Positions 3,427 to 17,075 of a stretch of 64,000 nucleotides of DNA are shown here, piece by piece (positions within the stretch are counted from its first letter, which is position 1; each line of letters starts with the position of its first letter). The stretch covers positions 1 to 64,000 of IMG/VR virus record IMGVR_UViG_3300032307_000516; one strand, written 5' to 3'. The DNA comes from a virus. Below the pieces are notes generated by a model, which saw only the letters and a list, made by a program, of their open reading frames with translations, made no database searches and was not told the DNA's origin. Both the position numbers and the translations under genes were made by a program.

Positions 3427-3447
3427 TAATATTAGGATATATAAGTT

Positions 3448-5720: not shown

Positions 5721-7367
5721 ATGTCAAGACTAGGCGAATTTGCTGACAAAAAAACAGCAATGCAAATTTTACAAAACTCCACTTACGGAGCACTAGGAGT
5801 AGAGAACTTCATGGGAGGGATATCTTACAGCTTATCACCTCTAAACACATTAAAGATTGTTGCTGCTTCTTCAATCTTTGGAGAACCACAATATTATAGA
5901 GATGGATTAGGTGCTCCTAGTAACCTTAGCACTATCTTGGACTATTCTATATTAGCTCCGATGTTCAAAGCAGAATCTGGAGCTTTAAAAGATAATCTGA
6001 GTGCTGTAGATATCTTCGAAGAAGCCATACAGGCAGCTTTAGACTTCGACTTTAAAGCAACATTGGATTTAGCTTTAGAACTCCGTAACGAGTACTATAT
6101 GCGTCTAAATCCAGCTGTAATATTTGTTAAAGCAAGTATGCACGAAGGTCGTCAGGAGTTCAACGAGAAAAATCCTGGGTACATGAAGATGATAGGTAAA
6201 GCTATTGCTCTTAGACCTGATGATTTAACAAATCAGTTCGAATACTATATGTATAAGAACGGAGGTAAAAAAGGTCTTTCATCTTTGGTGAAAAGAACTT
6301 GGGCAGAAAGACTTGCAGAATTCTCGCGTTACCAATTGAACAAATACAAGGGTAAAAGATTAATCGACCTTGTTCGTATCTCTCACGCTAAAAGTGAAGA
6401 TATTAATGAGCTAATGACAACTGGTACATTAAAAGTAGAAGAGTCAGAAAAAACATGGGAGATCTTAAGATCAGAAAAAAAATCATGGGAAGAGATTGTA
6501 AACACTATCTCAATCCCACATATGGCTCTTTTGAGAAACCTTAGAGGTATTTTTACTGAAGTCGAAGATCCTACACTTACTGCAAGAATTTTAACTCAGT
6601 TAAAAGGCGGTGTTATAAAAGGAAAACAATTCCCTTTTAGATATTGGTCAGCTTATAAAGCTGTATCCAATTCACAGATCCACCACAAACAACTTGTTTT
6701 GGATACTCTTGAAGAATGTTTAGACATCTCTGTAGAGAATATGCCTAAATTAAAAGGTAAAACGGTTTGTCTTTCTGATAACTCAGGATCTGCATGGGGT
6801 GCTTTCAATAGCGAATATGGATCAGTTACTGTAGCAGAGATTGCTAACTTGTCTTCATTAATTACATCACTACAATCTGATTCAGGAGAAGTTGGTGTAT
6901 TTGGGGATGATCTTTCATTGAAAGGAGTATCTAAAAGAAATGGCCTTCTTACACAATTAGAAGAAACTTCTAAAAGAGGTAGAGCTCAAGGAGGTGGTAC
7001 AGAAAATGGAATTTGGGTATTCTTTGATGAAGCCATCAAAAATAAAGTCCATTACGACAACATCTTTATCTATTCAGATATGCAAGCAGGTCACGGTAAT
7101 CTTTATGGACACGGACACACAGTAGGTAAAACTAAATTTGTCCACCCAAGAAAAGGCGGAACATACGTAGACGTACTTGCTATGGCTCAGGAATACAGAG
7201 ATAAAGTTAATCCTAAGGTTAATTTATTTACAGTTCAAGTAGGAGGTTACAACAACAGTGTTCTTCCTGAGGCTCTTTACAGAGGAGCAATATTAGCTGG
7301 TTGGACTGGTAAAGAACCTGTATTTGCTAAAGCAATTATAGACATTTGGGATTCAGTAGAAGCCTAA
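5721..7367 (+). CDS. rsr: TROVE-domain Ro60-like RNA-binding protein with C-terminal vWA domain
   Basis: Motifs ALLRNLR, QFPFRYWSAY, MIDAS-like DNSGS and IFIYSDMQ; 548 aa. Confidence 0.92.
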   Translation: MSRLGEFADKKTAMQILQNSTYGALGVENFMGGISYSLSPLNTLKIVAASSIFGEPQYYRDGLGAPSNLSTILDYSILAPMFKAESGALKDNLSAVDIFEEAIQAALDFDFKATLDLALELRNEYYMRLNPAVIFVKASMHEGRQEFNEKNPGYMKMIGKAIALRPDDLTNQFEYYMYKNGGKKGLSSLVKRTWAERLAEFSRYQLNKYKGKRLIDLVRISHAKSEDINELMTTGTLKVEESEKTWEILRSEKKSWEEIVNTISIPHMALLRNLRGIFTEVEDPTLTARILTQLKGGVIKGKQFPFRYWSAYKAVSNSQIHHKQLVLDTLEECLDISVENMPKLKGKTVCLSDNSGSAWGAFNSEYGSVTVAEIANLSSLITSLQSDSGEVGVFGDDLSLKGVSKRNGLLTQLEETSKRGRAQGGGTENGIWVFFDEAIKNKVHYDNIFIYSDMQAGHGNLYGHGHTVGKTKFVHPRKGGTYVDVLAMAQEYRDKVNPKVNLFTVQVGGYNNSVLPEALYRGAILAGWTGKEPVFAKAIIDIWDSVEA

Positions 7368-7383
7368 ATAAAACCATTATTTT

Positions 7384-7412
7384 AAATCCCTAGCATTGCT
7401 AGGGATTTTTTT
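7384..7412 (+). terminator. Intrinsic terminator
   Basis: AAATCCCTAGC-ATT-GCTAGGGATTT plus T-run. Confidence 0.85.
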
Positions 7413-7449
7413 GTGGGTTTCTACTAAGATATTGGATAAATATACTTGT

Positions 7450-7728
7450 ATGAAAAATTTAAAGACATTTGAGAATCATAGTTTCGAAGTTTACGATTCA
7501 GGTTCTAATATATTAAAAGGATACGGAGAAGAATTCCCATTTTCAAATTTATCCGTGGGAGACAAATTAGTTTATATGGGAACTCCATGTGAGGTTTACG
7601 AAGTATCTGATACTATTATTACATTACAGAATCTAAACCAAAATACAAAAAGATTTACTGTGAATCAAAACATGTTTAATAAAGGCGGATTTATCTCTAA
7701 AAAAGATACTCCAGCTAAACTCAAATAA
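7450..7728 (+). CDS. Hypothetical protein with capsid-targeting-like N-terminus
   Basis: ATG at 7450 (MKNLKTFENH) preferred; the TTG at 7396 lies inside the terminator. Confidence 0.6.
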   Translation: MKNLKTFENHSFEVYDSGSNILKGYGEEFPFSNLSVGDKLVYMGTPCEVYEVSDTIITLQNLNQNTKRFTVNQNMFNKGGFISKKDTPAKLK

Positions 7729-7737
7729 AAATAAAAA

Positions 7738-7884
7738 ATGGCTAAAACTAAAACTATCGATTCTAGCAAGTATTACAAGCATAGTACTAAGAAAAAAAGA
7801 CCTGGAATTCATTCCAAGTGTAAAAGTAGTGTAAGTAAGAATTCTAAGAACTATAAGAAAGCTTACGTTGGTCAGGGTAAATAA
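7738..7884 (+). CDS. Small Lys-rich protein ending in YxGQG (48 aa; not in ORF track)
   Basis: MAKTKTIDSSKYYKHSTKKKRPGIHSKCKSSVSKNSKNYKKAYVGQGK, A-rich leader. Confidence 0.65.
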   Translation: MAKTKTIDSSKYYKHSTKKKRPGIHSKCKSSVSKNSKNYKKAYVGQGK

Positions 7885-7909
7885 TAAGGATATATAAAAT
7901 AAAAAAAAG

Positions 7910-8260
7910 ATGAAACATCTAAGAATTTACGAACAATATGCAGAGGAAGTTATGCCAACGGAAGACACTGCAACTGATGTTCATTTCGAAACTGAAACTA
8001 CTGACTTTAAACCTACTGACGGAAATAGCGAAGGTAACTATATTGTTACTTTTCAAAATGCAGAAGGTGAAGATACAACAATAGAAATTGCTGGCGCTTC
8101 TGAGCCAGAATATGTTGGAAGTTCAATGGTAAGCAATATCGAGATGATCGAAGATTCAAGCTCTGACGGAAAAAAATATTCAATCGTTGGATATTACGAT
8201 GAAGTGCCTGGTCAAGACGGTGAATATGAGCTTAAAAAAGTACTAGTAGAAGAAATATAA
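7910..8260 (+). CDS. Acidic hypothetical protein with capsid-targeting-like N-terminus
   Basis: Starts MKHLRIYEQY; GATATATA at 7889. Confidence 0.6.
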   Translation: MKHLRIYEQYAEEVMPTEDTATDVHFETETTDFKPTDGNSEGNYIVTFQNAEGEDTTIEIAGASEPEYVGSSMVSNIEMIEDSSSDGKKYSIVGYYDEVPGQDGEYELKKVLVEEI

Positions 8261-8262
8261 TC

Positions 8263-8544
8263 ATGTCAATCAGAGTCTATTCAGGATACGATGAATTTAA
8301 GTTCGAGGAAGAAGAAATCTGCGAATATTTAGAATCCGATTTCTCAGATTCAAACGATGATGATGAATCAGATGATGTATTTTTTTATACTGAATCTAAA
8401 ATAGATTTTAGAGACGATGCTGATTTTTATATAATCTGTGATACAGAGGACGAGGAGACAGCAGAGGATATAGCTTCTTATTTAGGTAAGGCTAAAAAAA
8501 TAAATTTAGAAGATTTTAGGAAATCATTTTTTTATATAAGATAA
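8263..8544 (+). CDS. Acidic hypothetical protein
   Basis: 93-aa ORF directly after the upstream gene. Confidence 0.55.
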   Translation: MSIRVYSGYDEFKFEEEEICEYLESDFSDSNDDDESDDVFFYTESKIDFRDDADFYIICDTEDEETAEDIASYLGKAKKINLEDFRKSFFYIR

Positions 8545-8594
8545 AATATCTATATTTGTGAAACAAAACAACAAATAAGATATATAAAGTTTAA

Positions 8595-8654
8595 ATGAAA
8601 ACAATACTTAACATATTACCTTCAATATTAAGACCGTCGATAAGACGATCCTAA
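8595..8654 (+). CDS. Attenuator leader peptide 1 (MKTILNILPSILRPSIRRS)
   Basis: Rich in ATA, TTA, AGA, CCN and TCN codons; the stop codon overlaps the antiterminator strand. Confidence 0.8.
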   Translation: MKTILNILPSILRPSIRRS

Positions 8655-8732
8655 AGGTCCTGTGTTAATAAAAAATAATCATTAACTAAACCGGGACCTT
8701 TAAAAGTCTCGGTTTTTTTATGTTCTTTGACA
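8652..8732 (+). promoter_or_regulatory. Attenuator 1: antiterminator/terminator switch plus boxA
   Basis: TAAAGGTCCTG (8652-62) pairs with CGGGACCTTTA (8692-8702), competing with terminator AAACCGGGAC/GTCTCGGTTT plus T-run; TGTTCTTTGACA at 8721. Confidence 0.8.
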
Positions 8733-8749
8733 TGTTGGATTATCAAATT

Positions 8750-8836
8750 GGAGAGGTGGCAGAGCCTGGTTTATTGCACCGGTCTTGAAAACCGACGTAG
8801 TGAAAGCTACCGGGGGTTCGAATCCCTCCCTCTCCG
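8750..8836 (+). tRNA. tRNA-Ser(TGA)
   Basis: Cloverleaf, loop CTTGAAA, long variable arm. Confidence 0.95.
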
Positions 8837-8841
8837 CATTT

Positions 8842-8915
8842 GGTCCGCTAGCTCAGCTGGATAGAGCAACTGCCTTCTAAGCAGTAGGTCTCAGGTTCGA
8901 ATCCTGAGCGGATCA
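8842..8915 (+). tRNA. tRNA-Arg(TCT)
   Basis: Cloverleaf, loop CTTCTAA. Confidence 0.95.
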
Positions 8916-9082
8916 CACAAATCCCTCTGCCTAGCGCTGGGTATGGATCGAAGATAGAATATGCCTCTACACCGTAGACAGGTAGGATACCTCGGTATTC
9001 TTTAATGATATGCACACTTATTCTCCAAATCGTTGGTTGGCACAGTTTGTATGTTCTGGTGATACTTAAAGACATACAATTT

Positions 9083-9155
9083 CGGGATGTAGATCAGTTG
9101 GTAGATCGCCTGGTTTGGGACCAGGAGGCCCCAGGTTCGAGTCCTGGTATCCCGA
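9083..9155 (+). tRNA. tRNA-Pro(TGG)
   Basis: Cloverleaf, loop TTTGGGA, C1:G72. Confidence 0.95.
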
Positions 9156-9158
9156 CTA

Positions 9159-9221
9159 CGGAGGCTGTAAAGTCAAACAGTGAAGAATTTAAAGGATGAC
9201 ATCTTTAAATCCCTCCGACCA
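9159..9221 (+). ncRNA. CCA-ended tRNA-like mini-RNA with Pro-like acceptor end
   Basis: CGGAGG/CCTCCG-A-CCA closing two hairpins. Confidence 0.5.
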
Positions 9222-9222
9222 T

Positions 9223-9296
9223 AGAGGCGTAGCTCAATTGGTTAGAGCACATGCCTTATACGCATGCGGTCACGAGTTCGACTCTCGTCGTCTCTA
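9223..9296 (+). tRNA. tRNA-Ile(TAT)
   Basis: Cloverleaf, CATGC-CTTATAC-GCATG. Confidence 0.9.
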
Positions 9297-9300
9297 CTTA

Positions 9301-9374
9301 GGTCCCTTAGCTCAGTAGGTTAGAGCAACTGACTCATAATCAGTAGGTCCACGGTTCGAGCCCGTGAGGGACCA
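9301..9374 (+). tRNA. tRNA(CAT), probably Ile2 (lysidine type)
   Basis: Cloverleaf, loop CTCATAA, ileX-like acceptor GGTCCCT. Initiator and elongator Met tRNAs are found elsewhere in the window. Confidence 0.8.
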
Positions 9375-9465
9375 CAAAGATACGGATGAGATTTCTAAAT
9401 CTCCTACTTACTTATGAAAAGAAGGATTCCGTAACTAATACCATATAGTAGTGATGGTATTGTCT

Positions 9466-9548
9466 GCCCGGATGTTGAAATAGGTAGACAAGACGGACTT
9501 AAAATCCGTTGGCCATTGGTCGTGAGGGTTCAAGTCCCTCTCCGGGTA
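9466..9548 (+). tRNA. tRNA-Leu(TAA)
   Basis: Cloverleaf, loop CTTAAAA, variable arm. Confidence 0.95.
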
Positions 9549-9553
9549 CAAAT

Positions 9554-9660
9554 ATAATAGTGGCAGAGAGGCTTAATGCTGAGCATACATAGAGTCTGGG
9601 AATGTGGTATGTATGATACCTATACACGGGGACTCGCAGGTTCGAATCCTGTCTATTATA
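9554..9660 (+). ncRNA. Non-canonical tRNA-like RNA with expanded anticodon arm
   Basis: Acceptor ATAATAG/CTATTAT, D-arm, T-arm GCAGG-TTCGAAT-CCTGT; an 8-bp CATACATA/TATGTATG arm with 16-nt loop. Confidence 0.6.
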
Positions 9661-9663
9661 TAT

Positions 9664-9768
9664 ATAGGAGTGGCGGAAGCGTGATCTTTGCAAAGGTCCG
9701 ATAGATAGACGACAGGGTGTCATACCCGAGAATGAAAGTTCATATTGGTGCAAGTCCAATCTCCTGTA
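9664..9768 (+). ncRNA. Non-canonical tRNA-like RNA with D-loop insertion
   Basis: Acceptor ATAGGAG/CTCCTGT, T-arm ATTGG-TGCAAGT-CCAAT, GAAA-capped variable arm, extra hairpin in the D-loop. Confidence 0.55.
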
Positions 9769-9792
9769 CTTTTTTGATATATATAAAGAATC

Positions 9793-10164
9793 ATGAGTGA
9801 ACATATTAAGATATCAGGAATGGGTATAGAAATATACAAAAATGATATACCAGGTGTAAGATGGAATAAAGCTCAGTCTTTTGCTCAGATTCTTGGAGAT
9901 GGATGGAGATTACCAACTTTAGAAGAACTTGCTTTAATAAGATCAATAAGAAATATAGGTGATATAGGAAGATTTCCTGTAGAATATTCGGATTTTTCCG
10001 ATTCATATTACTGGAGTAACGAAGAACGCGAATTTACTACTAAAAAAATGATGGGAAGTAGTCTTAAAAGTACCTATGCTTACTTTTTTGATATGGCTGA
10101 AGGAACTTCTTCACACAATAAAAAGTCATACGAGCTTAGGGCTAGATTTGTTAGAGATATATAA
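9793..10164 (+). CDS. DUF1566/Lcl C-terminal-like domain protein
   Basis: GWRLPTLEEL and YYWS motifs. Confidence 0.75.
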   Translation: MSEHIKISGMGIEIYKNDIPGVRWNKAQSFAQILGDGWRLPTLEELALIRSIRNIGDIGRFPVEYSDFSDSYYWSNEEREFTTKKMMGSSLKSTYAYFFDMAEGTSSHNKKSYELRARFVRDI

Positions 10165-10167
10165 ATC

Positions 10168-10944
10168 ATGCCAACAACAAGAGCATTTGCATATAATCCA
10201 GCACAAGCAACAATTTCTGGAACTACAAATATAGGTACATTATGTGTAGGTGTATCTGCTTTAAATTACGGAGGAAATCCTGGTGGATTAACTTGGTGGA
10301 TGGGTCCGGACGAGGATAATTCTTATGTTATAGCTAAGGATGTGCCAACAGCAGACTTCCCTACTCCAGTAGGTAATGTTGGTAATGTACAATTTTGGAG
10401 ATGTTCTAACAACAGCTCAGAATTCACTAATCTTGTTACATTAATAAGTGGTACTACACAAGCATCTGCTTCTGCTGCTCAATCGTGGCTATCAACAAAT
10501 AATTATTGGACTAATTACACTAGCGGAGTAACTTTCTCACAACCTTTTGTAAATGGTACTGCACCAACAAATGCAGTAGAAACTGCTTGGAATACATTTA
10601 GAGCATCTTTAACAGGTTCTTATACACAATTTGTTGTATCTAATTCATTAGGGTTTAGTTTAACAGTAAGTCATGCTACTTCAGTACAGACTTTGGCAAA
10701 TGCACTAAGAAATGCAACAAATAATACCTCGGTAACTATAAACAGCGTAGTTTGGAGAGTAGGAACAGGATGTGGAACTCCTAAAATAGGTGGGGTTGCT
10801 GTTGAATTTTCCAACGTAGCAAGCTGTAGTTCATCAAGTACTATAGCATTTAGACCTATGATTAATAACTTAAACTGGGGAGGTATGGGTACAGGATCTA
10901 CTGTAGGACAGGCTTCACAAACAATGACACTAACATTTAGCTAA
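10168..10944 (+). CDS. Hypothetical Thr/Ser/Gly-rich virion-type protein
   Basis: 258-aa ORF with late-type motif upstream. Confidence 0.6.
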   Translation: MPTTRAFAYNPAQATISGTTNIGTLCVGVSALNYGGNPGGLTWWMGPDEDNSYVIAKDVPTADFPTPVGNVGNVQFWRCSNNSSEFTNLVTLISGTTQASASAAQSWLSTNNYWTNYTSGVTFSQPFVNGTAPTNAVETAWNTFRASLTGSYTQFVVSNSLGFSLTVSHATSVQTLANALRNATNNTSVTINSVVWRVGTGCGTPKIGGVAVEFSNVASCSSSSTIAFRPMINNLNWGGMGTGSTVGQASQTMTLTFS

Positions 10945-11096
10945 TGGAAACTTATAGAATAATAGACTTAAGAGTAACCCCAAATGAAATAGTACCAGGT
11001 AAGGAATCTGTTACTTTAGAAGAGGGACAATTATGGATAGACGAGAACGGAGGAGATTGTCCATTGTGCGACTATACGCTATTAATCAATGAATAA
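10944..11096 (+). CDS. Small hypothetical protein (50 aa; not in ORF track)
   Basis: TAATG overlap with the upstream gene; METYRIIDLRV...CPLCDYTLLINE. Confidence 0.5.
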   Translation: METYRIIDLRVTPNEIVPGKESVTLEEGQLWIDENGGDCPLCDYTLLINE

Positions 11097-11202
11097 ATGT
11101 AGATTTTTTAAAATAATTTGAAAAAAATACAAAAAACATTTTTTTAAACGGGAACTTTTCCGTACTTTTGGAGTATATAATAAAAAAGGAACAAAACTTT
11201 CA

Positions 11203-11292
11203 ATGAAACACTTTTTAAATATCGAAATGGATCTTCAGCTTCTAAAAGGAGACGAACGTCTTGAGGATACAAATAAGTGTCAGAGGAAATAA
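11203..11292 (+). CDS. Attenuator leader peptide 2 (MKHFLNIEMDLQLLKGDERLEDTNKCQRK)
   Basis: Core enriched in GAR, GAY and CTN codons; the 3' end carries the antiterminator strand. Confidence 0.75.
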   Translation: MKHFLNIEMDLQLLKGDERLEDTNKCQRK

Positions 11293-11362
11293 ATTTATAT
11301 AAAGATATAATTTAAACCTCTGATAACCTCAGAGGTTTTTTTGTTTTATACGCTCTTTGAAA
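11278..11362 (+). promoter_or_regulatory. Attenuator 2: antiterminator/terminator switch plus boxA
   Basis: TGTCAGAGG (11278-86) pairs with CCTCTGATA (11317-25), competing with AAACCTCTGA/TCAGAGGTTT plus T-run; CGCTCTTTGAAA at 11351. Confidence 0.78.
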
Positions 11363-11366
11363 TTAT

Positions 11367-11441
11367 GGTCCCTTCGTCTATCGGTTAGGACGTTAGGTTT
11401 TCATCCTAGAAAGAGGGGTTCGATTCCCCTAGGGACTACCA
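11367..11441 (+). tRNA. tRNA-Glu(TTC)
   Basis: Cloverleaf, loop TTTTCAT, encoded CCA. Confidence 0.92.
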
Positions 11442-11446
11442 GAAAA

Positions 11447-11520
11447 GGTCCTACAGTCCAGTTGGAGTGGACGCCGCCCTGTCACGGCGGAGATCGCGGG
11501 TTCGAGTCCCGCTAGGACCG
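11447..11520 (+). tRNA. tRNA-Asp(GTC)
   Basis: Cloverleaf, loop CTGTCAC, G73. Confidence 0.95.
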
Positions 11521-11618
11521 CTAAAACTTATGCTACATAGAGCAAAGCAGAAAGGTACGATCTGGTACACTATGAAGTACAAATAGAAAGTCAGATCATA
11601 AGTTTTAAAAAATTATAT

Positions 11619-11691
<73 letters not shown>

Positions 11692-11905
11692 CTAATAAGT
11701 TATTTGAAATATTTGCGAAAAGTTCGATGGAATCAATTATAGGTCCAGGGCACAAATCCGTGTGAGGAATCCAATTGATAGAAGAACCTTCTACTGAGTA
11801 ATGCACGTACACGTGATATCCATAGAAAAGTCCTAATAAGTTAAAGGCAAAGGAGTTGATAATACCGGTTAAAAACAACTTTATCTCTTTAGATAGCAAA
11901 TAAAT

Positions 11906-11985
11906 GCCCTCGTGGTGGAATTGGTAGACACGCTAGACTTAGGATCTAGTGCGAAAGCGTGAGAGTTCGAGTCTCTCCGAGGGTA
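11906..11985 (+). tRNA. tRNA-Leu(TAG)
   Basis: Cloverleaf, loop CTTAGGA, variable arm. Confidence 0.95.
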
Positions 11986-11987
11986 CT

Positions 11988-12485
11988 ATGAAAGTTATAT
12001 TTTTAGATTTTGATGGTGTTCTTAATCTTATACCTCAAGGACATGACTATTACGGAGGGATTTTTCACCCTGAATTTGTCGGCAACCTAGGTAGGATTAT
12101 AGAGGAAACTGGAGCAAAACTTGTGATAAGCTCTTCGTGGAGAACTATGGGATTGGAAAGACTTAGAATGATGTGGGAACATCGTTTATATCCAGGAGAC
12201 ATCATAGGAGTTACCCCAGATCTTAGATGGAGGACAAAAAAAGATGCTATGGAATTAAACGAAGTCGAGTACGTTAGAGGAGATGAAATAGAGTCATGGC
12301 TAAATCTACATCCGGAGGTAACTAATTATGTTATACTTGACGATGATGATGATATGTTACAATCACAAAGAATAAACTTTGTAAGAACATCTGATAATAT
12401 TAATCATCCTGATTGCATTGATATAGGATACGGATTAACTAATATTTGTTCTAACGATGCAATTAGAATTTTAAACAGAAAATAA
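11988..12485 (+). CDS. HAD phosphatase, Swiss-army-knife RNA-repair type (HAD_SAK_2-like)
   Basis: IFLDFDGV, ISSSWR, RGDEI and ILDD motifs; ATG at 11988 lies just after the tRNA. Confidence 0.85.
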   Translation: MKVIFLDFDGVLNLIPQGHDYYGGIFHPEFVGNLGRIIEETGAKLVISSSWRTMGLERLRMMWEHRLYPGDIIGVTPDLRWRTKKDAMELNEVEYVRGDEIESWLNLHPEVTNYVILDDDDDMLQSQRINFVRTSDNINHPDCIDIGYGLTNICSNDAIRILNRK

Positions 12486-13054
12486 TGAAAGTTATATTTT
12501 TAGATCATGATGGAGTAATTTGTCTTTCCCAGCAATTTGGTGGGCGTTACAAAAAGCAGACTAAAGCTAGAACTAAGCTTTCTCAAAACGTGATGGATTT
12601 TCCAGTCGATGCTAGATTTGATAACTTCGATAAGAAAGCTATTAAAGTTCTAAACCTAATCTTAGAAGATACTGGAGCTGAAATAGTTGTTTCTTCTGAT
12701 TGGAAGAACTGGGCAAATGTTGAAGAAATGGGCGAATATTACGAACAACAAGGTATAATTAAAAAGCCTATTGATTTTACACCTAGAGAATACACAATGC
12801 CAGAGAAACAAGAATGGCATCCAGACTGGGATTTAGAAGCATCAAGAACTTTAGAAATCCAAGAATGGCTAAAAGATCATCCAGAGGTTACTCATTGGGT
12901 AGCAATAGATGATTTAGATATGAGCTTTAAAGAGGTATCAAATAATAGAAGCGGTACTGGCTGGGGCTTAAAAAACTTTGTACACACCCCAAGTATCACT
13001 GAAGGGATTAAAAAAATGGGTATAAAAGAAAAAGTTTTAAAATTTTTAAAATAA
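12485..13054 (+). CDS. HAD phosphatase, HAD_SAK_2-like paralog
   Basis: IFLDHDGV, VSSDWK, RTLEI and AIDD motifs. Confidence 0.85.
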   Translation: MKVIFLDHDGVICLSQQFGGRYKKQTKARTKLSQNVMDFPVDARFDNFDKKAIKVLNLILEDTGAEIVVSSDWKNWANVEEMGEYYEQQGIIKKPIDFTPREYTMPEKQEWHPDWDLEASRTLEIQEWLKDHPEVTHWVAIDDLDMSFKEVSNNRSGTGWGLKNFVHTPSITEGIKKMGIKEKVLKFLK

Positions 13055-13137
13055 TTTCAAAAAACATTTTTTTATTTAAAAAATATATTGTACTTTTACG
13101 AAACTATTCTGGAAACAGGATATATAATTAAGAAAAA

Positions 13138-13245
13138 ATGAAAAACTGTAGTAAACATAACATCAATCGCATGAACAGTCAAATTAATGGCTGCTATCAA
13201 ACGGTGGCGTTTTGGGCTAAGGGGAAAGAACCCGATCGAAGCTAA
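13138..13245 (+). CDS. Attenuator leader peptide 3 (MKNCSKHNINRMNSQINGCYQTVAFWAKGKEPDRS)
   Basis: Codons 2-30 encode exactly the 16 amino-acid types served by tRNA operon 3. Confidence 0.85.
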   Translation: MKNCSKHNINRMNSQINGCYQTVAFWAKGKEPDRS

Positions 13246-13319
13246 TACAGAAAATCATAATTAGATATTTTGGAAAAGGCTTCGATTTAATCGAAGCCTT
13301 TTTTATTTGTTCTTTGACA
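13234..13319 (+). promoter_or_regulatory. Attenuator 3: antiterminator/terminator switch plus boxA
   Basis: GATCGAAGC (13234-42) pairs with GCTTCGATT (13279-87), competing with AAAAGGCTTCGA/TCGAAGCCTTTT; TGTTCTTTGACA at 13308. Confidence 0.82.
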
Positions 13320-13332
13320 TACTGGAAAAAAT

Positions 13333-13405
13333 GGTACCGTAGCTCAGTTGGTAGAGCACTAGACTGAAAATCTAGGTGTCGCCGGTTCGATTCCGGCCGG
13401 TACCA
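13333..13405 (+). tRNA. tRNA-Phe(GAA)
   Basis: Cloverleaf, loop CTGAAAA. Confidence 0.95.
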
Positions 13406-13476
13406 CAATACTAAACAAGAAATTGTCTCACTAAACTAATCATGTTTAGTATTACAAAAACAAGTTTAGTAACAAT

Positions 13477-13550
13477 GATCTCGTAGCTCAGTTGGCTAGA
13501 GCACCTCACTTTTAATGAGGGAGTCGAGGGTTCGAGCCCCTCCGGGATCA
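13477..13550 (+). tRNA. tRNA-Lys(TTT)
   Basis: Cloverleaf, loop CTTTTAA. Confidence 0.95.
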
Positions 13551-13556
13551 CTACAC

Positions 13557-13629
13557 ACGTCAGTAGCTCAATTGGTAGAGCGTTGGTCTCCAAAACCAAA
13601 GGTCGTAGGTTCGATTCCTACCTGGCGTG
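13557..13629 (+). tRNA. tRNA-Trp(CCA)
   Basis: Cloverleaf, loop CTCCAAA. Confidence 0.95.
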
Positions 13630-13635
13630 CTAAAA

Positions 13636-13708
13636 GGCTCTGTAGTTCAAGGGATTAGAATGGATCACTACGGATGATCTGATCCTGGTTCGAATCCAGG
13701 TGGAGTCT
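13636..13708 (+). tRNA. tRNA-Arg(ACG)
   Basis: Cloverleaf, loop CTACGGA. Confidence 0.9.
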
Positions 13709-13719
13709 CAAACAAATAA

Positions 13720-13791
13720 GGTCGTGTGGTCGAGTGGTTTAGGCACTAGTCTGCAAAACTAGTTATACTGGTTCAATTCCAGTCACGGCCT
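13720..13791 (+). tRNA. tRNA-Cys(GCA)
   Basis: Cloverleaf, loop CTGCAAA, U73. Confidence 0.93.
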
Positions 13792-13925
13792 CAAAAAATG
13801 TAAGAAGTATGAAAATAGTTATTGAAGGAAAAATGAAATCGTCGAATCACAGATTAAATGCGATTCCAGTTAAAATTGAAAGAAAAAATTCTCTAATCAA
13901 AAGAATCAAAAGATTGATTAATAAA

Positions 13926-14011
13926 GGAAAGTAATCTCAGATGGTGACGGGGCTCGCCTGCTAAGCGAAGCGTACCTTAATTGGTATTTGGTTCGATTCC
14001 AATTCTTTCCG
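13926..14011 (+). tRNA. tRNA-Ser(GCT), somewhat divergent
   Basis: Loop CTGCTAA, variable arm, G73; mismatches at stem ends. Confidence 0.8.
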
Positions 14012-14017
14012 CAACAT

Positions 14018-14091
14018 TGACATATAGCTCAGTTGGTTAGAGCGTTGATCTGATACGTCAAAGGTCGAAGGTTCGAATCCTTCTATGTCAA
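14018..14091 (+). tRNA. tRNA-Ile(GAT)
   Basis: Cloverleaf, loop CTGATAC. Confidence 0.93.
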
Positions 14092-14154
14092 CTTAAAAAT
14101 TATAAAAATGAAAAAAGAATTTGACAACTTGTAGGTTTAATTAAACCCTACAAG

Positions 14155-14346
14155 ATGAGTAAAAACACAAACAGAGCAAAACTGAACAAAGCAATGAATG
14201 GTAGAGAACACAGAAACATTTTAAATAATGCTCTTTATCCTCCATACAGTGAATATGATCACACATGGTGGCATGGAAATTTATCCAATCACAAATGGAG
14301 ATCATACAAAACCTGGAAACACAACAGAAAAACAAAATGGAAGTAA
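14155..14346 (+). CDS. Small basic Trp-rich protein inside the tRNA operon
   Basis: 63-aa ORF filling the tRNA spacer, ending KTWKHNRKTKWK. Confidence 0.55.
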   Translation: MSKNTNRAKLNKAMNGREHRNILNNALYPPYSEYDHTWWHGNLSNHKWRSYKTWKHNRKTKWK

Positions 14347-14357
14347 TTCCATTTTAC

Positions 14358-14430
14358 AGTCTCTTAGCTCAGTTGGTAGAGCGCTTGGTTTACATCCAAG
14401 ATGTCGGGGGTTCGAGCCCCTCAGGGACTA
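14358..14430 (+). tRNA. tRNA-Val(TAC)
   Basis: Cloverleaf, loop TTTACAT. Confidence 0.95.
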
Positions 14431-14433
14431 CAA

Positions 14434-14586
14434 GATTAGAAGCGGTAGATTTGGTTACTTCGCACTTTTAATGCCCGTGTCGGGGGTTCGAATCCCTCAT
14501 CTAGCTCCATAGCAGATCCTAGGATTTGTGCTAGATTAGCTCAGCGGTAGAGCAGGTTCCAAACCAAATCTAAATATTCTCTAATC
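14434..14586 (+). ncRNA. Y-RNA-like element 4 containing a circularly permuted tRNA-Lys(TTT)
   Basis: GATTAGA-AGCGG-TAGATTTGGT-TACTTC [tRNA 3' half, CCA, linker, tRNA 5' half] ACCAAATCTA-AATATTC-TCTAATC. Confidence 0.8.
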
Positions 14587-14592
14587 CTAATA

Positions 14593-14680
14593 TTGATTAG
14601 AAGCGGTGAAAGGGGTTACTTCTCAAAACCTTGTAAATTTTTGACCAAAAAACCACCCCGATTAAATATTCTCTAATCAA
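14593..14680 (+). ncRNA. Y-RNA-like element 5 (short form)
   Basis: TTGATTAGA-AGCGG...GGGGT-TACTTC...ACCCC...AATATTC-TCTAATCAA. Confidence 0.7.
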
Positions 14681-14684
14681 AACT

Positions 14685-14756
14685 GGGGATGTAGCTCAGC
14701 GGTAGAGCTCCCGACTGTTAATCGGTAGGTCGCTGGTTCGAATCCAGCCTTCCCCG
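14685..14756 (+). tRNA. tRNA-Asn(GTT)
   Basis: Cloverleaf, loop CTGTTAA, G73. Confidence 0.92.
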
Positions 14757-14792
14757 CAATTCAGAGTGTTGAGCAATTGGTTGCTCAGCTGA
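14756..14792 (+). repeat. Truncated duplicate of the tRNA-Tyr 5' half (direct repeat of 15940-15976)
   Basis: GCAATTCAGAGTGTTGAGCAATTGGTTGCTCAGCTGA versus GCACTTCGGAGTGTTGAGCAATTGGCTGCTCAGCTGA (3 mismatches). Confidence 0.85.
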
Positions 14793-14829
14793 TAAAAGAA
14801 TATATTATATTTAGATTCAATTTTAAGTT

Positions 14830-15765
14830 ATGACAGGATACCATATATACTACCAAACATCAGAAGATGGAGAATATGAGCAAATAAATTATTTAGTTCA
14901 ATTAGCTTCAATTTTAAATTGGAAAAAGAATTATGGCCCCATCAAATTGTATTGTAACCAAAGATTTCTAGAGTCTATATCCAAATATGGAATTGATAAA
15001 GAATATGATTTTATTGATACTGAGTATTTAGAATCAGTTCCATATAAAGATAGTATGTCGACATTTTGGAGCTTTTGCAAAATTTATGTCGCTAAAAAGA
15101 TTGTCGAAACTGAATCGGAATTTTGTATTTTAGATACTGATTTATGGATTCAAGCGCCTGACTTATTAAGTCAAGAACATGATTTAGTTTTACATCACGC
15201 TGAAGCTTATGATCTAAATTATGATCGCAACCCATATCCAGATCCTAGAAATTGGTTAATTGAGTCAGAGATAGAAGAATATGATTGGAATACCTCTCCC
15301 GCAAATTGCGCGATATTGTATTTTAAAAATAAAAGTAAAGAGTTAATAGATGCTTGGTATGAATTTGCAATTAAAATAGTAGAGCGTCATAAAGATAATA
15401 ATACAGAACCGAATTTGCGTTGCGGTACTATTTTTATCGAGCAACGTCTATTACCTACAATAGCAAAGAAAATGGGTATATCAATGACGGTCGTGTCTCC
15501 TTGTACTTATTTAACTTGGATACCAGCTTCATTGGCTGATGGGCGGGAATGGAGGCCTTCATTAGATTATTCAGAACGATCTTTATATATTGGTTCTAAT
15601 ATTAAACATGTATGGGGAGCAAAAAAGTTTTATTCTGAAAATTGGATTCGGGAGTTAATAATTGACAATGCTATGATAGGAATTAATTTAGTTCAGAATC
15701 AAGAAAGAAAGTATTTTAAGTTATACAGTGATGTGCATGAAGTGCATCCAAAAAAATATATTTAA
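14830..15765 (+). CDS. Putative GT-A fold nucleotide-diphospho-sugar transferase
   Basis: FWSFCKIY...ILDTDLW (DxD), NCAIL, IFIEQRLL and HVWG motifs. Confidence 0.65.
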   Translation: MTGYHIYYQTSEDGEYEQINYLVQLASILNWKKNYGPIKLYCNQRFLESISKYGIDKEYDFIDTEYLESVPYKDSMSTFWSFCKIYVAKKIVETESEFCILDTDLWIQAPDLLSQEHDLVLHHAEAYDLNYDRNPYPDPRNWLIESEIEEYDWNTSPANCAILYFKNKSKELIDAWYEFAIKIVERHKDNNTEPNLRCGTIFIEQRLLPTIAKKMGISMTVVSPCTYLTWIPASLADGREWRPSLDYSERSLYIGSNIKHVWGAKKFYSENWIRELIIDNAMIGINLVQNQERKYFKLYSDVHEVHPKKYI

Positions 15766-15851
15766 AATAAATTAAAAAATATTTGGTACTTACAAATGGT
15801 AACACCTTATATTTATATATAGTTAAAAAGAAATAGTTCTTTAAAAATATT

Positions 15852-15940
15852 GGAAGGGTGACAGAGTTGGTCTATCGCGCCGGTCTTGAAAACCGGTGAA
15901 CTCGAAAGGGTTCAGTGAGTTCGAATCCAACCTTCCCTCG
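15852..15940 (+). pseudogene. Degenerate tRNA-Ser(TGA)
   Basis: Anticodon and variable arms intact, but the T-stem and acceptor 3' strand are out of register. Confidence 0.7.
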
Positions 15941-15945
15941 CACTT

Positions 15946-16030
15946 CGGAGTGTTGAGCAATTGGCTGCTCAGCTGACTGTAAATCAGCCGCCTTACGGCA
16001 TTGGGGGTTCGAATCCCTCCGCTCCGACCA
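15946..16030 (+). tRNA. tRNA-Tyr(GTA) with C1:G72
   Basis: CGGAGTG/CGCTCCG-A-CCA, loop CTGTAAA, variable arm. Confidence 0.92.
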
Positions 16031-16033
16031 AAT

Positions 16034-16108
16034 GCAGGTATCGTATAACGGTCATTACTTCTGACTTCCAATCAGAAGATCTCGGTTCGATTCCGGGTAC
16101 CTGCTCCA
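16034..16108 (+). tRNA. tRNA-Gly(TCC)
   Basis: Cloverleaf, loop CTTCCAA, U73, CCA. Confidence 0.93.
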
Positions 16109-16111
16109 AAT

Positions 16112-16151
16112 GCCGGGTGATCCTCTCGTTGAATCACGAGAGCCGGCTCCA
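16112..16151 (+). ncRNA. CCA-ended 12-bp minihelix (tRNA top-half mimic)
   Basis: GCCGG-gtgatc-CTCTCGT-tgaatc-ACGAGAG-CCGGC-T-CCA. Confidence 0.55.
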
Positions 16152-16152
16152 C

Positions 16153-16226
16153 GGGGGATTAGCTCAGTTGGCTAGAGTACTTGCCTTGCACGCAAGGGGT
16201 CATCGGTTCGAATCCGATATCCTCCA
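16153..16226 (+). tRNA. tRNA-Ala(TGC)
   Basis: Cloverleaf, G3:U70, loop CTTGCAC. Confidence 0.95.
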
Positions 16227-16235
16227 CTTTTATAT

Positions 16236-16308
16236 GGCGAGTTAGCTCAGTTGGTAGAGCGTCGGAATCATACCCCGAAGGTCGGCAGTTCGAACCTGCC
16301 ACTCGCTA
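16236..16308 (+). tRNA. tRNA-Met(CAT), elongator
   Basis: Cloverleaf, loop ATCATAC. Confidence 0.88.
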
Positions 16309-16310
16309 CT

Positions 16311-16387
16311 GTGACGGTAGCTCAGTTGGTTAGAGCGTCTGATTGTGGTTCAGAAGGTCGGGGGTTCGATTCCCCTCTGTCACCCCA
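16311..16387 (+). tRNA. tRNA-His(GTG)
   Basis: Cloverleaf, loop TTGTGGT, C73, CCA; the -1 base is T rather than G. Confidence 0.92.
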
Positions 16388-16388
16388 T

Positions 16389-16461
16389 GCCTTTGTAGCT
16401 CAGCTGGTAGAGCGCTTCACTTGTAATGAAGATGTCGCAGGTTCGATCCCTGTCAAAGGCT
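16389..16461 (+). tRNA. tRNA-Thr(TGT)
   Basis: Cloverleaf, loop CTTGTAA. Confidence 0.95.
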
Positions 16462-16467
16462 CTATAA

Positions 16468-16540
16468 TGTCCTGTGGTGTAATTGGCAACACGTCTGATT
16501 TTGGTTCAGAAGAGTCCAGGTTCGAGCCCTGGCGGGACAT
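16468..16540 (+). tRNA. tRNA-Gln(TTG)
   Basis: Cloverleaf, loop TTTTGGT. Confidence 0.93.
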
Positions 16541-16586
16541 CTAAAAAATAAGATAAATACAATAACCAGTATGTAAAAATAGAGCT

Positions 16587-17075
16587 ATGAAAGTGCTAGT
16601 ATTAAATAATGACTTTACGCCTATAAGCGTTACCGATTTTGCCCGGGGATTTAAGCTTGTATATAAAGGTAAAGCAGAAATTTTAGAGCACGATGAACAA
16701 AACCCAATTGTTACTGATCAAAGCACCTACAAAAGACCATCAGTAATTCGACTTCTAAAGTATGTTGTTTTGCCTTTCAAAAAGCTAAAACCTACAAGGG
16801 AAAATATCTTTAAAAGAGATGAGATGAAATGTATCTATTGTGATACATCAAAAAATCTCACAATAGATCACGTTTTTCCCAGATCTAGAGGTGGTGGTAA
16901 CACATGGGAAAATTTAGCTACATGCTGTTCAAAATGTAACGGTAGAAAAGGAGATAGAACCCCGGAAGAAGCCGGAATGAAAATGAGACAAAAGCCATTT
17001 AAACCCGGATATGGCTATTTCATAAGGAATTTTTCCAAAGGAATAGATGTGTGGACAGCATATCTTCCAGATTAA
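16587..17075 (+). CDS. HNH endonuclease (McrA-like)
   Basis: CIYC...LTIDHVFPRSRGGGNTWENLATCCSKCN. Confidence 0.92.
   Translation: MKVLVLNNDFTPISVTDFARGFKLVYKGKAEILEHDEQNPIVTDQSTYKRPSVIRLLKYVVLPFKKLKPTRENIFKRDEMKCIYCDTSKNLTIDHVFPRSRGGGNTWENLATCCSKCNGRKGDRTPEEAGMKMRQKPFKPGYGYFIRNFSKGIDVWTAYLPD

Follow-up and report, generated by a model that had tools for sequence, protein, structure and literature searches.

How could a phage that carries many transfer RNA (tRNA) genes match their transcription to the need for them? The question is raised by the virus record IMGVR_UViG_3300032307_000516 of IMG/VR, a 72-kb phage contig with 34% G+C, of which we analysed the first 64 kb (64,000 nucleotides, hereafter the window). 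ARAGORN finds 26 tRNA genes in the window, arranged in four clusters, and a short open reading frame (ORF) followed by an intrinsic terminator precedes the first of them. We call this element leader 1 and propose that it controls entry into the phage tRNA operon by transcription attenuation, with a ribosome on the leader-peptide ORF as the sensor, a reading to which we give a probability of about six in ten. The coordinates of its parts are collected in Table 1.

The leader ORF matches the tRNA genes downstream

The leader 1 ORF consists of an ATG at 8595-8597, 18 internal codons and a TAA at 8652-8654; the whole element, promoter and terminator included, measures about 170 nt. Behind it ARAGORN calls six tRNA genes, the same six that the preliminary description of this DNA had named, with starts at 8750 (Ser(TGA)), 8842 (Arg(TCT)), 9083 (Pro(TGG)), 9223 (Ile(TAT)), 9301 (a tRNA with anticodon CAT) and 9466 (Leu(TAA)). 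The acceptor stem of the CAT tRNA reads GGTCCC, which suggests the label Ile2-like.

To quantify the match, we defined the cluster 1 codon set as the codons decoded by these six tRNAs, namely TCN, AGR, CCN, ATA and TTR, and took as background the 20,165 codons contained in 69 ORFs from this contig, where the set accounts for 20.9% of codons. In leader 1 the set accounts for 13 of the 18 internal codons (binomial p=4.2e-6 against a background of 0.209), and all five codon families are represented (p=0.027). No stretch of a real gene does as well, the maximum count among 18,992 sliding 18-codon windows being 11, and leader 1 ranks first by codon-set match among the 350 ATG ORFs of 15-40 codons found in the six frames. 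The match is complete in codons 7-17 (ATA TTA CCT TCA ATA TTA AGA CCG TCG ATA AGA), where 11 of 11 codons are in the set (0.209^11 = 3e-8); we refer to these codons as the sensing block.

The codon string of the leader had been quoted correctly in the preliminary description, and reading the ORF confirms two statements made there, that 13 of the 16 codons from 4 to 19 fall in the families TCN, AGR, CCN, ATA and TTR and that all four Ile codons are ATA. The same description called these codons rare, a term that has to be dropped. In this phage ATA (41% of Ile codons), AGA (79% of Arg codons) and TTA (43% of Leu codons) are each the commonest codon for their residue, and their rarity is an E. 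coli notion.

Relatives change the peptide and keep the tRNA set

A search with the protein Ro60, which is encoded just upstream of the tRNA region, led to 48 viral contigs, 13 of which carry a leader 1 homologue with 75-95% identity. A motif scan of the viral collection returned the same 13 homologues, and a scan of metagenomes found at least 10 stretches with both flanking motifs and added at least six new leader 1 variants. The resulting alignment has 20 rows, of which 17 are distinct, and this number of relatives is a lower bound. The ATG is kept in 19 of the 20 rows.

Within the sensing block, 17 of the 20 distinct variant codons stay in the cluster 1 set, compared to 6.9 expected (p=1.5e-6; 17 distinct sequences), the null being a sense codon drawn at random with an equal Hamming distance. 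Codons 2-6 served as an internal control. They vary freely and mostly out of the set, with 6 of 21 variant codons in the set versus 4.3 expected. The pattern is specific to one reading frame: for codons 7-17, 184 of 187 alignment cells are in the set in frame 0, versus 4 of 187 and 0 of 187 when the frame is shifted by one or two bases. It is also specific to the codon. Among the first 12 distinct rows, Ile in codons 7-17 is written ATA 31 times and never ATT or ATC, both of which occur in codons 2-6.

The substitutions themselves run through series such as TTA-TCA-ATA, TCA-ATA-TTA-TCC-TCT and ATA-TCA-TCG, so that the residue changes and the tRNA set stays. Codons 10-12, the most variable of the block, lie outside every predicted helix, and the C-terminal LRPSIRRS of the peptide is nearly invariant. 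The substitution pattern within codons 7-17 is the one predicted by selection on codon identity and not by selection on the peptide or on the RNA fold.

Two further leaders repeat the arrangement

The same layout precedes clusters 2 and 3, which begin at 11367 and 13333 and whose leader ORFs lie at 11203-11292 and 13138-13245. We counted the codons of each leader against the sets of all three clusters. Leader 1 has 13 of 18 codons in the set of cluster 1, 1 of 18 in that of cluster 2 and 3 of 18 in that of cluster 3; leader 2 has 2 of 28, 11 of 28 (p=0.0086) and 10 of 28, and leader 3 has 1 of 34, 3 of 34 and 18 of 34 (p=0.0059), in the same order. Each leader is thus enriched for the codons of its own cluster and poor in the others. 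Leader 3 holds all eight codon families of cluster 3 (p=0.003) and, when clusters 3 and 4 are combined, all fifteen families of the two (p=3e-5).

The geometry is repeated as well. In all three leaders the best complement of the terminator 5' arm is found at the stop codon of the ORF (shuffle p of 0.044, 0.009 and 0.006); for leader 1 this means that the best upstream partner is more stable than in 95.6% of 1000 dinucleotide shuffles. When leaders and terminators are swapped, each leader pairs best with its own terminator, giving a diagonal matrix, and in 29 of 30 leader sequences from the three paralogs it is the end of the ORF that offers the 5' arm of the terminator its best partner. Indels in leaders 2 and 3 are multiples of three, save for a single-base gap in relative L004 just 3' of the stop codon. 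The three leaders have no common peptide motif, yet they follow a common codon-to-tRNA logic. A search of the relatives for further leader types, using a pattern of T-run plus boxA, returned only the three known types and chance matches in coding DNA.

Leader 1 RNA is predicted to adopt mutually exclusive folds

When the leader 1 RNA is folded to position 8722, the minimum-energy fold is the terminator (helix 3:4, -13.4 kcal/mol). When it is cut at 8705, before the 3' arm of the terminator, the minimum-free-energy fold becomes an 11-bp antiterminator helix, 8652-8662/8692-8702, that includes one G-U pair (helix 2:3, -13.8 kcal/mol). The two structures are mutually exclusive because 8692-8697 belongs to both. 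A further helix, 1:2 (8610-8621/8655-8666, -5.6 kcal/mol), is predicted by RNAalifold on 12 sequences and encloses P1 (-5.8 kcal/mol), a hairpin that is possibly used for pausing or timing. The fold z-score is -4.7.

Across the 12 sequences, pairing is retained in 99.2% of cells for the terminator and in 100% for P1, both with G-U changes only, three of those in P1 being found in L012. The antiterminator is paired in 91.7% of cells and has one compensatory pair, A-U to U-A, in L010. The weak helix 1:2 is conserved in sequence with little covariation, and L012 has lost half of its 10 pairs (5).

These results qualify two structural claims of the preliminary description. The 11-bp antiterminator helix is predicted for the window sequence, whereas only its central 8 bp are kept in all relatives. 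Similarly, the stop codon starts the antiterminator strand in 9 of the 20 rows (8 of the 17 distinct ones), the window sequence among them, where it occupies the 5' end of region 2. The remaining 11 rows have an insertion of 1 nt, which shifts the stop by 15 nt, so that it falls at the 3' end of that region. With either position, a terminating ribosome would sit on region 2 and mask the strand.

Promoter, start and boxA-like signals

The candidate promoter of leader 1 fits the consensus TAnnTTTG of the Bacteroidota sigma-A factor, for which passages in PMC9723704 and PMC6847099 give both the sequence and a position from -12 to -5. The surrounding sequence TATATTTGTGAAAC is kept in 10 of 14 rows; L038 and L010 have TACATTTG and L011 and L012 have TATCTTTG, all of which still fit the consensus. 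The corresponding sequences of leaders 2 and 3 are TACTTTTG and TACTTTTA.

Between this box and the ORF lies the motif GATATATAA, which has 9 matches in the window versus 1.8 expected, a number reached by 0 of 100 shuffles. The copies are at 3436, 7889, 8579, 10156, 13119, 20964, 23887 (minus strand), 31292 and 38352, every one of them on the coding strand and 12-27 nt 5' of an ORF start (measured from motif start to ATG). They precede leaders 1 and 3 and seven real genes, so the leaders carry the same start-associated signal as real genes. It might serve as a promoter of the phage or as a signal for translation start.

A Shine-Dalgarno core is found in only 3 of 69 genes, and the start regions, including the one upstream of leader 1, are A-rich. 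Starts that lack a Shine-Dalgarno sequence and are A-rich are described for Bacteroidota in a passage of PMC6847099. Judging from the conservation of the box, the few Shine-Dalgarno cores (3 of 69) and the A-rich starts, the signals of the phage look Bacteroidota-like. A passage of PMC9723704 reports leader-peptide attenuation as likely in Flavobacterium psychrophilum.

A boxA-like motif, G(T/C)TCTTT(G/A)A(C/A)AT, heads all four tRNA clusters (8722-8733, 11351-11362, 13309-13320 and 15828-15840). It follows all three terminators, precedes the fourth cluster, which has no leader, and is conserved in relatives. A sigma-70 promoter at TTGACA (8727-8732) was considered and discarded, since a suitably spaced -10 box is lacking, only 17 nt separate the hexamer from the tRNA and the hexamer lies within the boxA-like motif.

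RNA-library contigs from two studies, X15 (8585-8807, with 0 other letters) and X18 (8589-8806), span the leader, the terminator and the start of tRNA-Ser. They are compatible with read-through transcripts, and DNA carry-over is also possible. The interval 8300-8571 has no cover in any of four RNA-library runs, and contig ends cannot mark RNA ends, so that these libraries give no start-site evidence.

Table 1. Features of leader 1 and of the tRNA cluster that follows it, in window coordinates
Feature	Position	Strand	Sequence	Remarks
Candidate promoter -7 box	8551..8558	+	TATATTTG	fits Bacteroidota sigma-A TAnnTTTG; predicted start near 8563
Gene-start motif	8579..8587	+	GATATATAA	
Leader 1 ORF	8595..8654	+	MKTILNILPSILRPSIRRS	19 codons + TAA
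Region 1	8610..8621	+	AACATATTACCT	5' strand of predicted 1:2 anti-antiterminator helix; RNAalifold, 12 sequences
Hairpin P1	8632..8650	+	GACCGUC-GAUAA-GACGAUC	inside ORF; -5.8 kcal/mol
Region 2	8652..8666	+		pairs with region 1 (8655-8666) or region 3 (8652-8662); starts with stop codon
Intrinsic terminator	8688..8719	+		G+C-rich hairpin 8688-8715, 10-bp stem, 8-nt loop, seven T
Region 3	8692..8702	+		antiterminator 3' strand; overlaps terminator 5' arm
boxA-like motif	8722..8733	+	GTTCTTTGACAT	3' of terminator 1
tRNA cluster 1	8750..9549	+		ARAGORN, Rfam scan; six tRNA genes

A proposed mechanism and the points against it

The core of the preliminary description, a codon-matched leader ORF whose stop lies on the antiterminator strand and a terminator placed before the tRNA genes, holds and is strengthened by the relatives. 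From parts that we observe, with their conservation, a codon match kept through substitutions and alternative folds, we infer the steps that tie them together, namely that the leader is translated, that its translation is coupled to transcription, that ribosomes stall on it and in which direction the switch works. Transcription would start from the Bacteroidota-type promoter near 8563. A ribosome would then load on the A-rich leader, which has no Shine-Dalgarno sequence, and translate the 19-codon ORF as the polymerase nears the terminator. With fast decoding of codons 7-17, it would reach the stop and cover region 2 (8652-8666), and with region 2 masked the terminator (8688-8719) would form and keep the tRNA genes off. 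If the aminoacyl-tRNAs for codons 7-17 are short, the ribosome would stall upstream and region 2 would pair with 8692-8702. This pairing would block the terminator and let the polymerase pass the boxA-like site into the genes for tRNA-Ser, -Arg, -Pro, -Ile(UAU), -Ile2-like and -Leu(UAA). The tRNAs expressed in this way would be those that read the stalling codons, resulting in a negative feedback on their supply.

A number of observations weigh against this mechanism. The sensed codons are the commonest of the phage, and stalling would therefore need a real shortage of tRNA. Helix 2:3 is far stronger than helix 1:2, so that, in contrast to trp, read-through may be the default state of a leader that is not translated. 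Stalling at codons 15-17 would, moreover, bring the ribosome into contact with region 2. Leader 1 shows weak covariation: the antiterminator has an invariant 8-bp core and end pairs that fail to form in 3-5 of 12 sequences, 44 of 500 shuffles attain its covariation score, and the terminator changes by G-U pairs only. The helices are thus conserved there and not proven by covariation. As for the promoter, TAHHTTTG is not enriched in the window (44 matches versus 53.4 expected), and the call accordingly rests on conservation; the count lends a Bacteroidota host no genome-wide support.

Some of the relatives also depart from the pattern. The row without an ATG, L005, reads ATA in its place, and its tRNA cluster is partly degenerate. 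In L078 a CCG has become CAG, a codon that the set does not include and with which one pair of P1 is lost. L011 and L012 carry the out-of-set codons CTA, TTC and TTT and keep three Ser codons with no tRNA-Ser downstream. These two form the sole informative lineage for co-variation between codons and tRNAs; they have neither a tRNA-Pro nor Pro codons, which is suggestive only. Finally, codons 6 (AAC) and 18 (CGA) are invariant yet out of the set. We infer that helix 1:2 would explain the invariant AAC, and P1 likewise the CGA.

Alternative explanations

The nearly invariant C-terminus of the leader 1 peptide might indicate that the ORF is simply a gene for a small functional peptide and the terminator behind it an ordinary one, with the tRNAs transcribed by constitutive leak-through and the alternative helix incidental. 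Cassettes of promoter, small ORF and terminator are common in phages, and the weak covariation of the antiterminator would be in keeping with such a gene. The variable positions, however, swap Ile, Ser and Leu and never synonymous Ile codons, which is the opposite of selection on a peptide, and P1 and region 2 occupy the same place as the invariant C-terminus, so that nucleotides rather than residues may be kept. Adding that three unrelated leaders match their own clusters, and that in each of them the stop falls on a copy of the 3' arm of the leader's own terminator, we consider this explanation quite improbable. The same parts could also form a translation-coupled element that answers to another signal, either through a nascent peptide (e.g. 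RPSIRRS) that arrests the ribosome when a ligand or factor is present or as a report of overall translation capacity or infection timing. While the conserved Pro/Arg-rich tail could be an arrest peptide, such peptides are kept by residue, and here the upstream block varies in its residues and not in its tRNA set; the three leaders, moreover, share their codon logic and no peptide motif. A signal of this kind is, in our view, very improbable.

The codon-set pattern, confined to one frame and strongest in the helix-free codons 10-12, also argues against an element that acts as RNA only, such as a protein or ligand switch, a processing site or a 5' stabiliser, whose reading frame would be a by-product. 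So do the retention of the ATG, the indels in leaders 2 and 3 that are nearly all multiples of three and the lack of any Rfam family at threshold. Although conservation at the nucleotide level of 8610-8621 and 8630-8666, the P1 pairs kept through G-U changes and the fold z-score speak for an RNA-only element, we regard it as most unlikely. It is conceivable, lastly, that the terminator only insulates the upstream genes and that entry into the tRNA genes is set, independently of the ORF, by a phage factor or by Nus-type antitermination at the boxA-like site, which is present after every terminator and before the leaderless fourth cluster. That site lies 3' of the terminator and so cannot act on it, and both the codon match and the placement of the stop on the antiterminator would be left unexplained; we give this arrangement little credence. 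Every one of these alternatives fails on the frame-specific substitutions that preserve the tRNA set and on the threefold replication of the arrangement.

Comparison with known systems

Multivalent attenuators are familiar from enterobacteria, where thrL responds to Thr and Ile and ilvL and ivbL to Ile, Leu and Val, next to trpL, hisL and pheL. Leader 1 would be an attenuator of this trp or thr type and would work much as the multivalent thrL and ilvL do. It shares with them the short leader ORF, the regulatory codons, the mutually exclusive antiterminator and terminator and a stop placed to mask the antiterminator strand; the weak predicted 1:2 helix and the internal hairpin may be further likenesses. 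It has a usable start, codon enrichment, a terminator, an exclusive antiterminator and the placement of the stop that define an attenuator; the genes behind it are not biosynthetic or synthetase genes. Unlike the enterobacterial attenuators, leader 1 would regulate tRNA genes and not biosynthetic enzymes. It matches five codon families at the level of the codon (Ile as ATA only, Leu as TTA, Arg as AGR), a choice set by the anticodons downstream. It also differs in its phage setting, in a Bacteroidota-type leader with no Shine-Dalgarno sequence and in a 2:3 helix that is stronger than 1:2. To our knowledge, all known leader-peptide attenuators regulate genes for amino-acid biosynthesis or aminoacyl-tRNA synthetases.

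An Rfam scan of 7000-17000 found no leader family at threshold, the best being Thr_leader (RF00506) with 22.9 bits against a gathering score of 55 (E=1), and no match to the T-box at E<=1. T-box riboswitches resemble the attenuator proposed here in that a switch between terminator and antiterminator is tied to the state of tRNA (of one tRNA in the T-box), with feedback on the supply of charged tRNA. They differ in binding uncharged tRNA directly and in needing no ribosome, in their length of about 200-300 nt, in their conserved T-box sequence and in their synthetase and amino-acid target genes, whereas leader 1 measures about 130 nt and contains an ORF.

The boxA-like motif GTTCTTTGACAT also resembles what we take to be the boxA of E. 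coli rrn operons. By eye it is similar to boxA 12-mers such as GGCUCCUUGGCA of Aquifex (PMC3177189), and it likewise heads operons of untranslated RNA. In contrast to the NusB-NusE sites of rrn and lambda, it is found 3' of the attenuator terminator and outside the switch, and is called boxA-like by sequence.

The closest concept in print is the trn array of Anabaena PCC 7120, an extra set of tRNAs that, according to PMC8421152 and PMC10272220, is induced when translation is impaired. RNA-repair genes lie nearby in both cases, rtcB at the Anabaena array, as described there, and Ro60 with two HAD_SAK_2 proteins in the phage. These papers describe control of the Anabaena promoter by the repressor TrcR on direct repeats, in contrast to the control proposed for the phage through a cluster-specific, codon-matched leader and terminator. 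The words attenuation, leader and terminator are absent from PMC8421152.

Genes and RNAs around the leaders

The Ro60/TROVE homologue (5721-7367, 548 aa) lies just 5' of the tRNA region and is 53.5% identical to gp540 of Bacillus phage G. Ro60 homologues adjoin tRNA clusters in many other viral contigs too. A weak match to YrlA, a Y RNA-like RNA (14474-14558, 28.3 bits with a threshold of 69), is located in the tRNA region of this Ro60-encoding phage. Directly 3' of tRNA-Leu(TAG), and inside the tRNA region, two tandem proteins carry HAD_SAK_2, the RNA-repair 'Swiss Army Knife' HAD domain (11988-12485, E=6.5e-27; 12485-13054, E=9.3e-23).

Several tRNA-like sequences accompany the clusters. A tRNA-like gene at 13925-14011, whose anticodon loop carries GCT and whose variable arm is long, is not called by ARAGORN and scores 38.3 bits, under threshold, with the Rfam model tRNA-Sec; if functional, it would decode the AGT and AGC codons of leader 3. 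Two stretches within 9550-9790 have a tRNA-like T-arm and acceptor-like ends with long inserts and are called by neither ARAGORN nor Rfam. The CAT tRNA of cluster 2 (11619-11692) has a mismatch at 1:72 and GGG/CCC in the anticodon stem, features that presumably mark it as initiator-like. In cluster 1, tRNA-Arg and tRNA-Pro are separated by a spacer of 166 nt (8917-9082), which is absent from the relatives L004, L010 and L038 and is covered by RNA-library contigs. Suppressor-type tRNAs with the anticodon TTA are found in related or Ro60-bearing viral contigs, namely L038 (17787-17858), L029, L040 and L046 (12104-12193) and L031 (1826-1898).

Comparison of the region with deposited phages by megablast and blastn gave only tRNA-sized or chance matches and no close relative. 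A scan of 185,579 prokaryote genomes for a prophage or host returned one match, in a GC-rich coding region that has no tRNAs, which we take as chance.

Implications

A full-text literature search, with subscription journals largely outside its reach, found leader-peptide attenuation described only for amino-acid and synthetase genes and gave no account of leader-peptide control of tRNA genes. If leader 1 works as an attenuator, it would close a loop in which the ribosome gauges the decoding speed of a set of codons and the output is the tRNAs that decode this very set. With at least 17 natural variants, this small element would also offer a natural part for the codon-specific sensing of translation.

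A more specific role can be imagined for the three attenuators, as isoacceptor-specific damage sensors in an anti-defence island. An anticodon nuclease, or another defence that depletes tRNAs, would stall the ribosome, and only the matching cluster would be transcribed, together with the two HAD_SAK_2 RNA-repair proteins and with Ro60 upstream. We offer this as a tentative and rather unlikely extension; if true, the phage would diagnose which of the tRNAs are attacked and replace exactly those. More generally, attenuation by leader 1, if true, would provide a simple homeostat for the supply of tRNA during infection and would explain how large sets of phage tRNAs are controlled.

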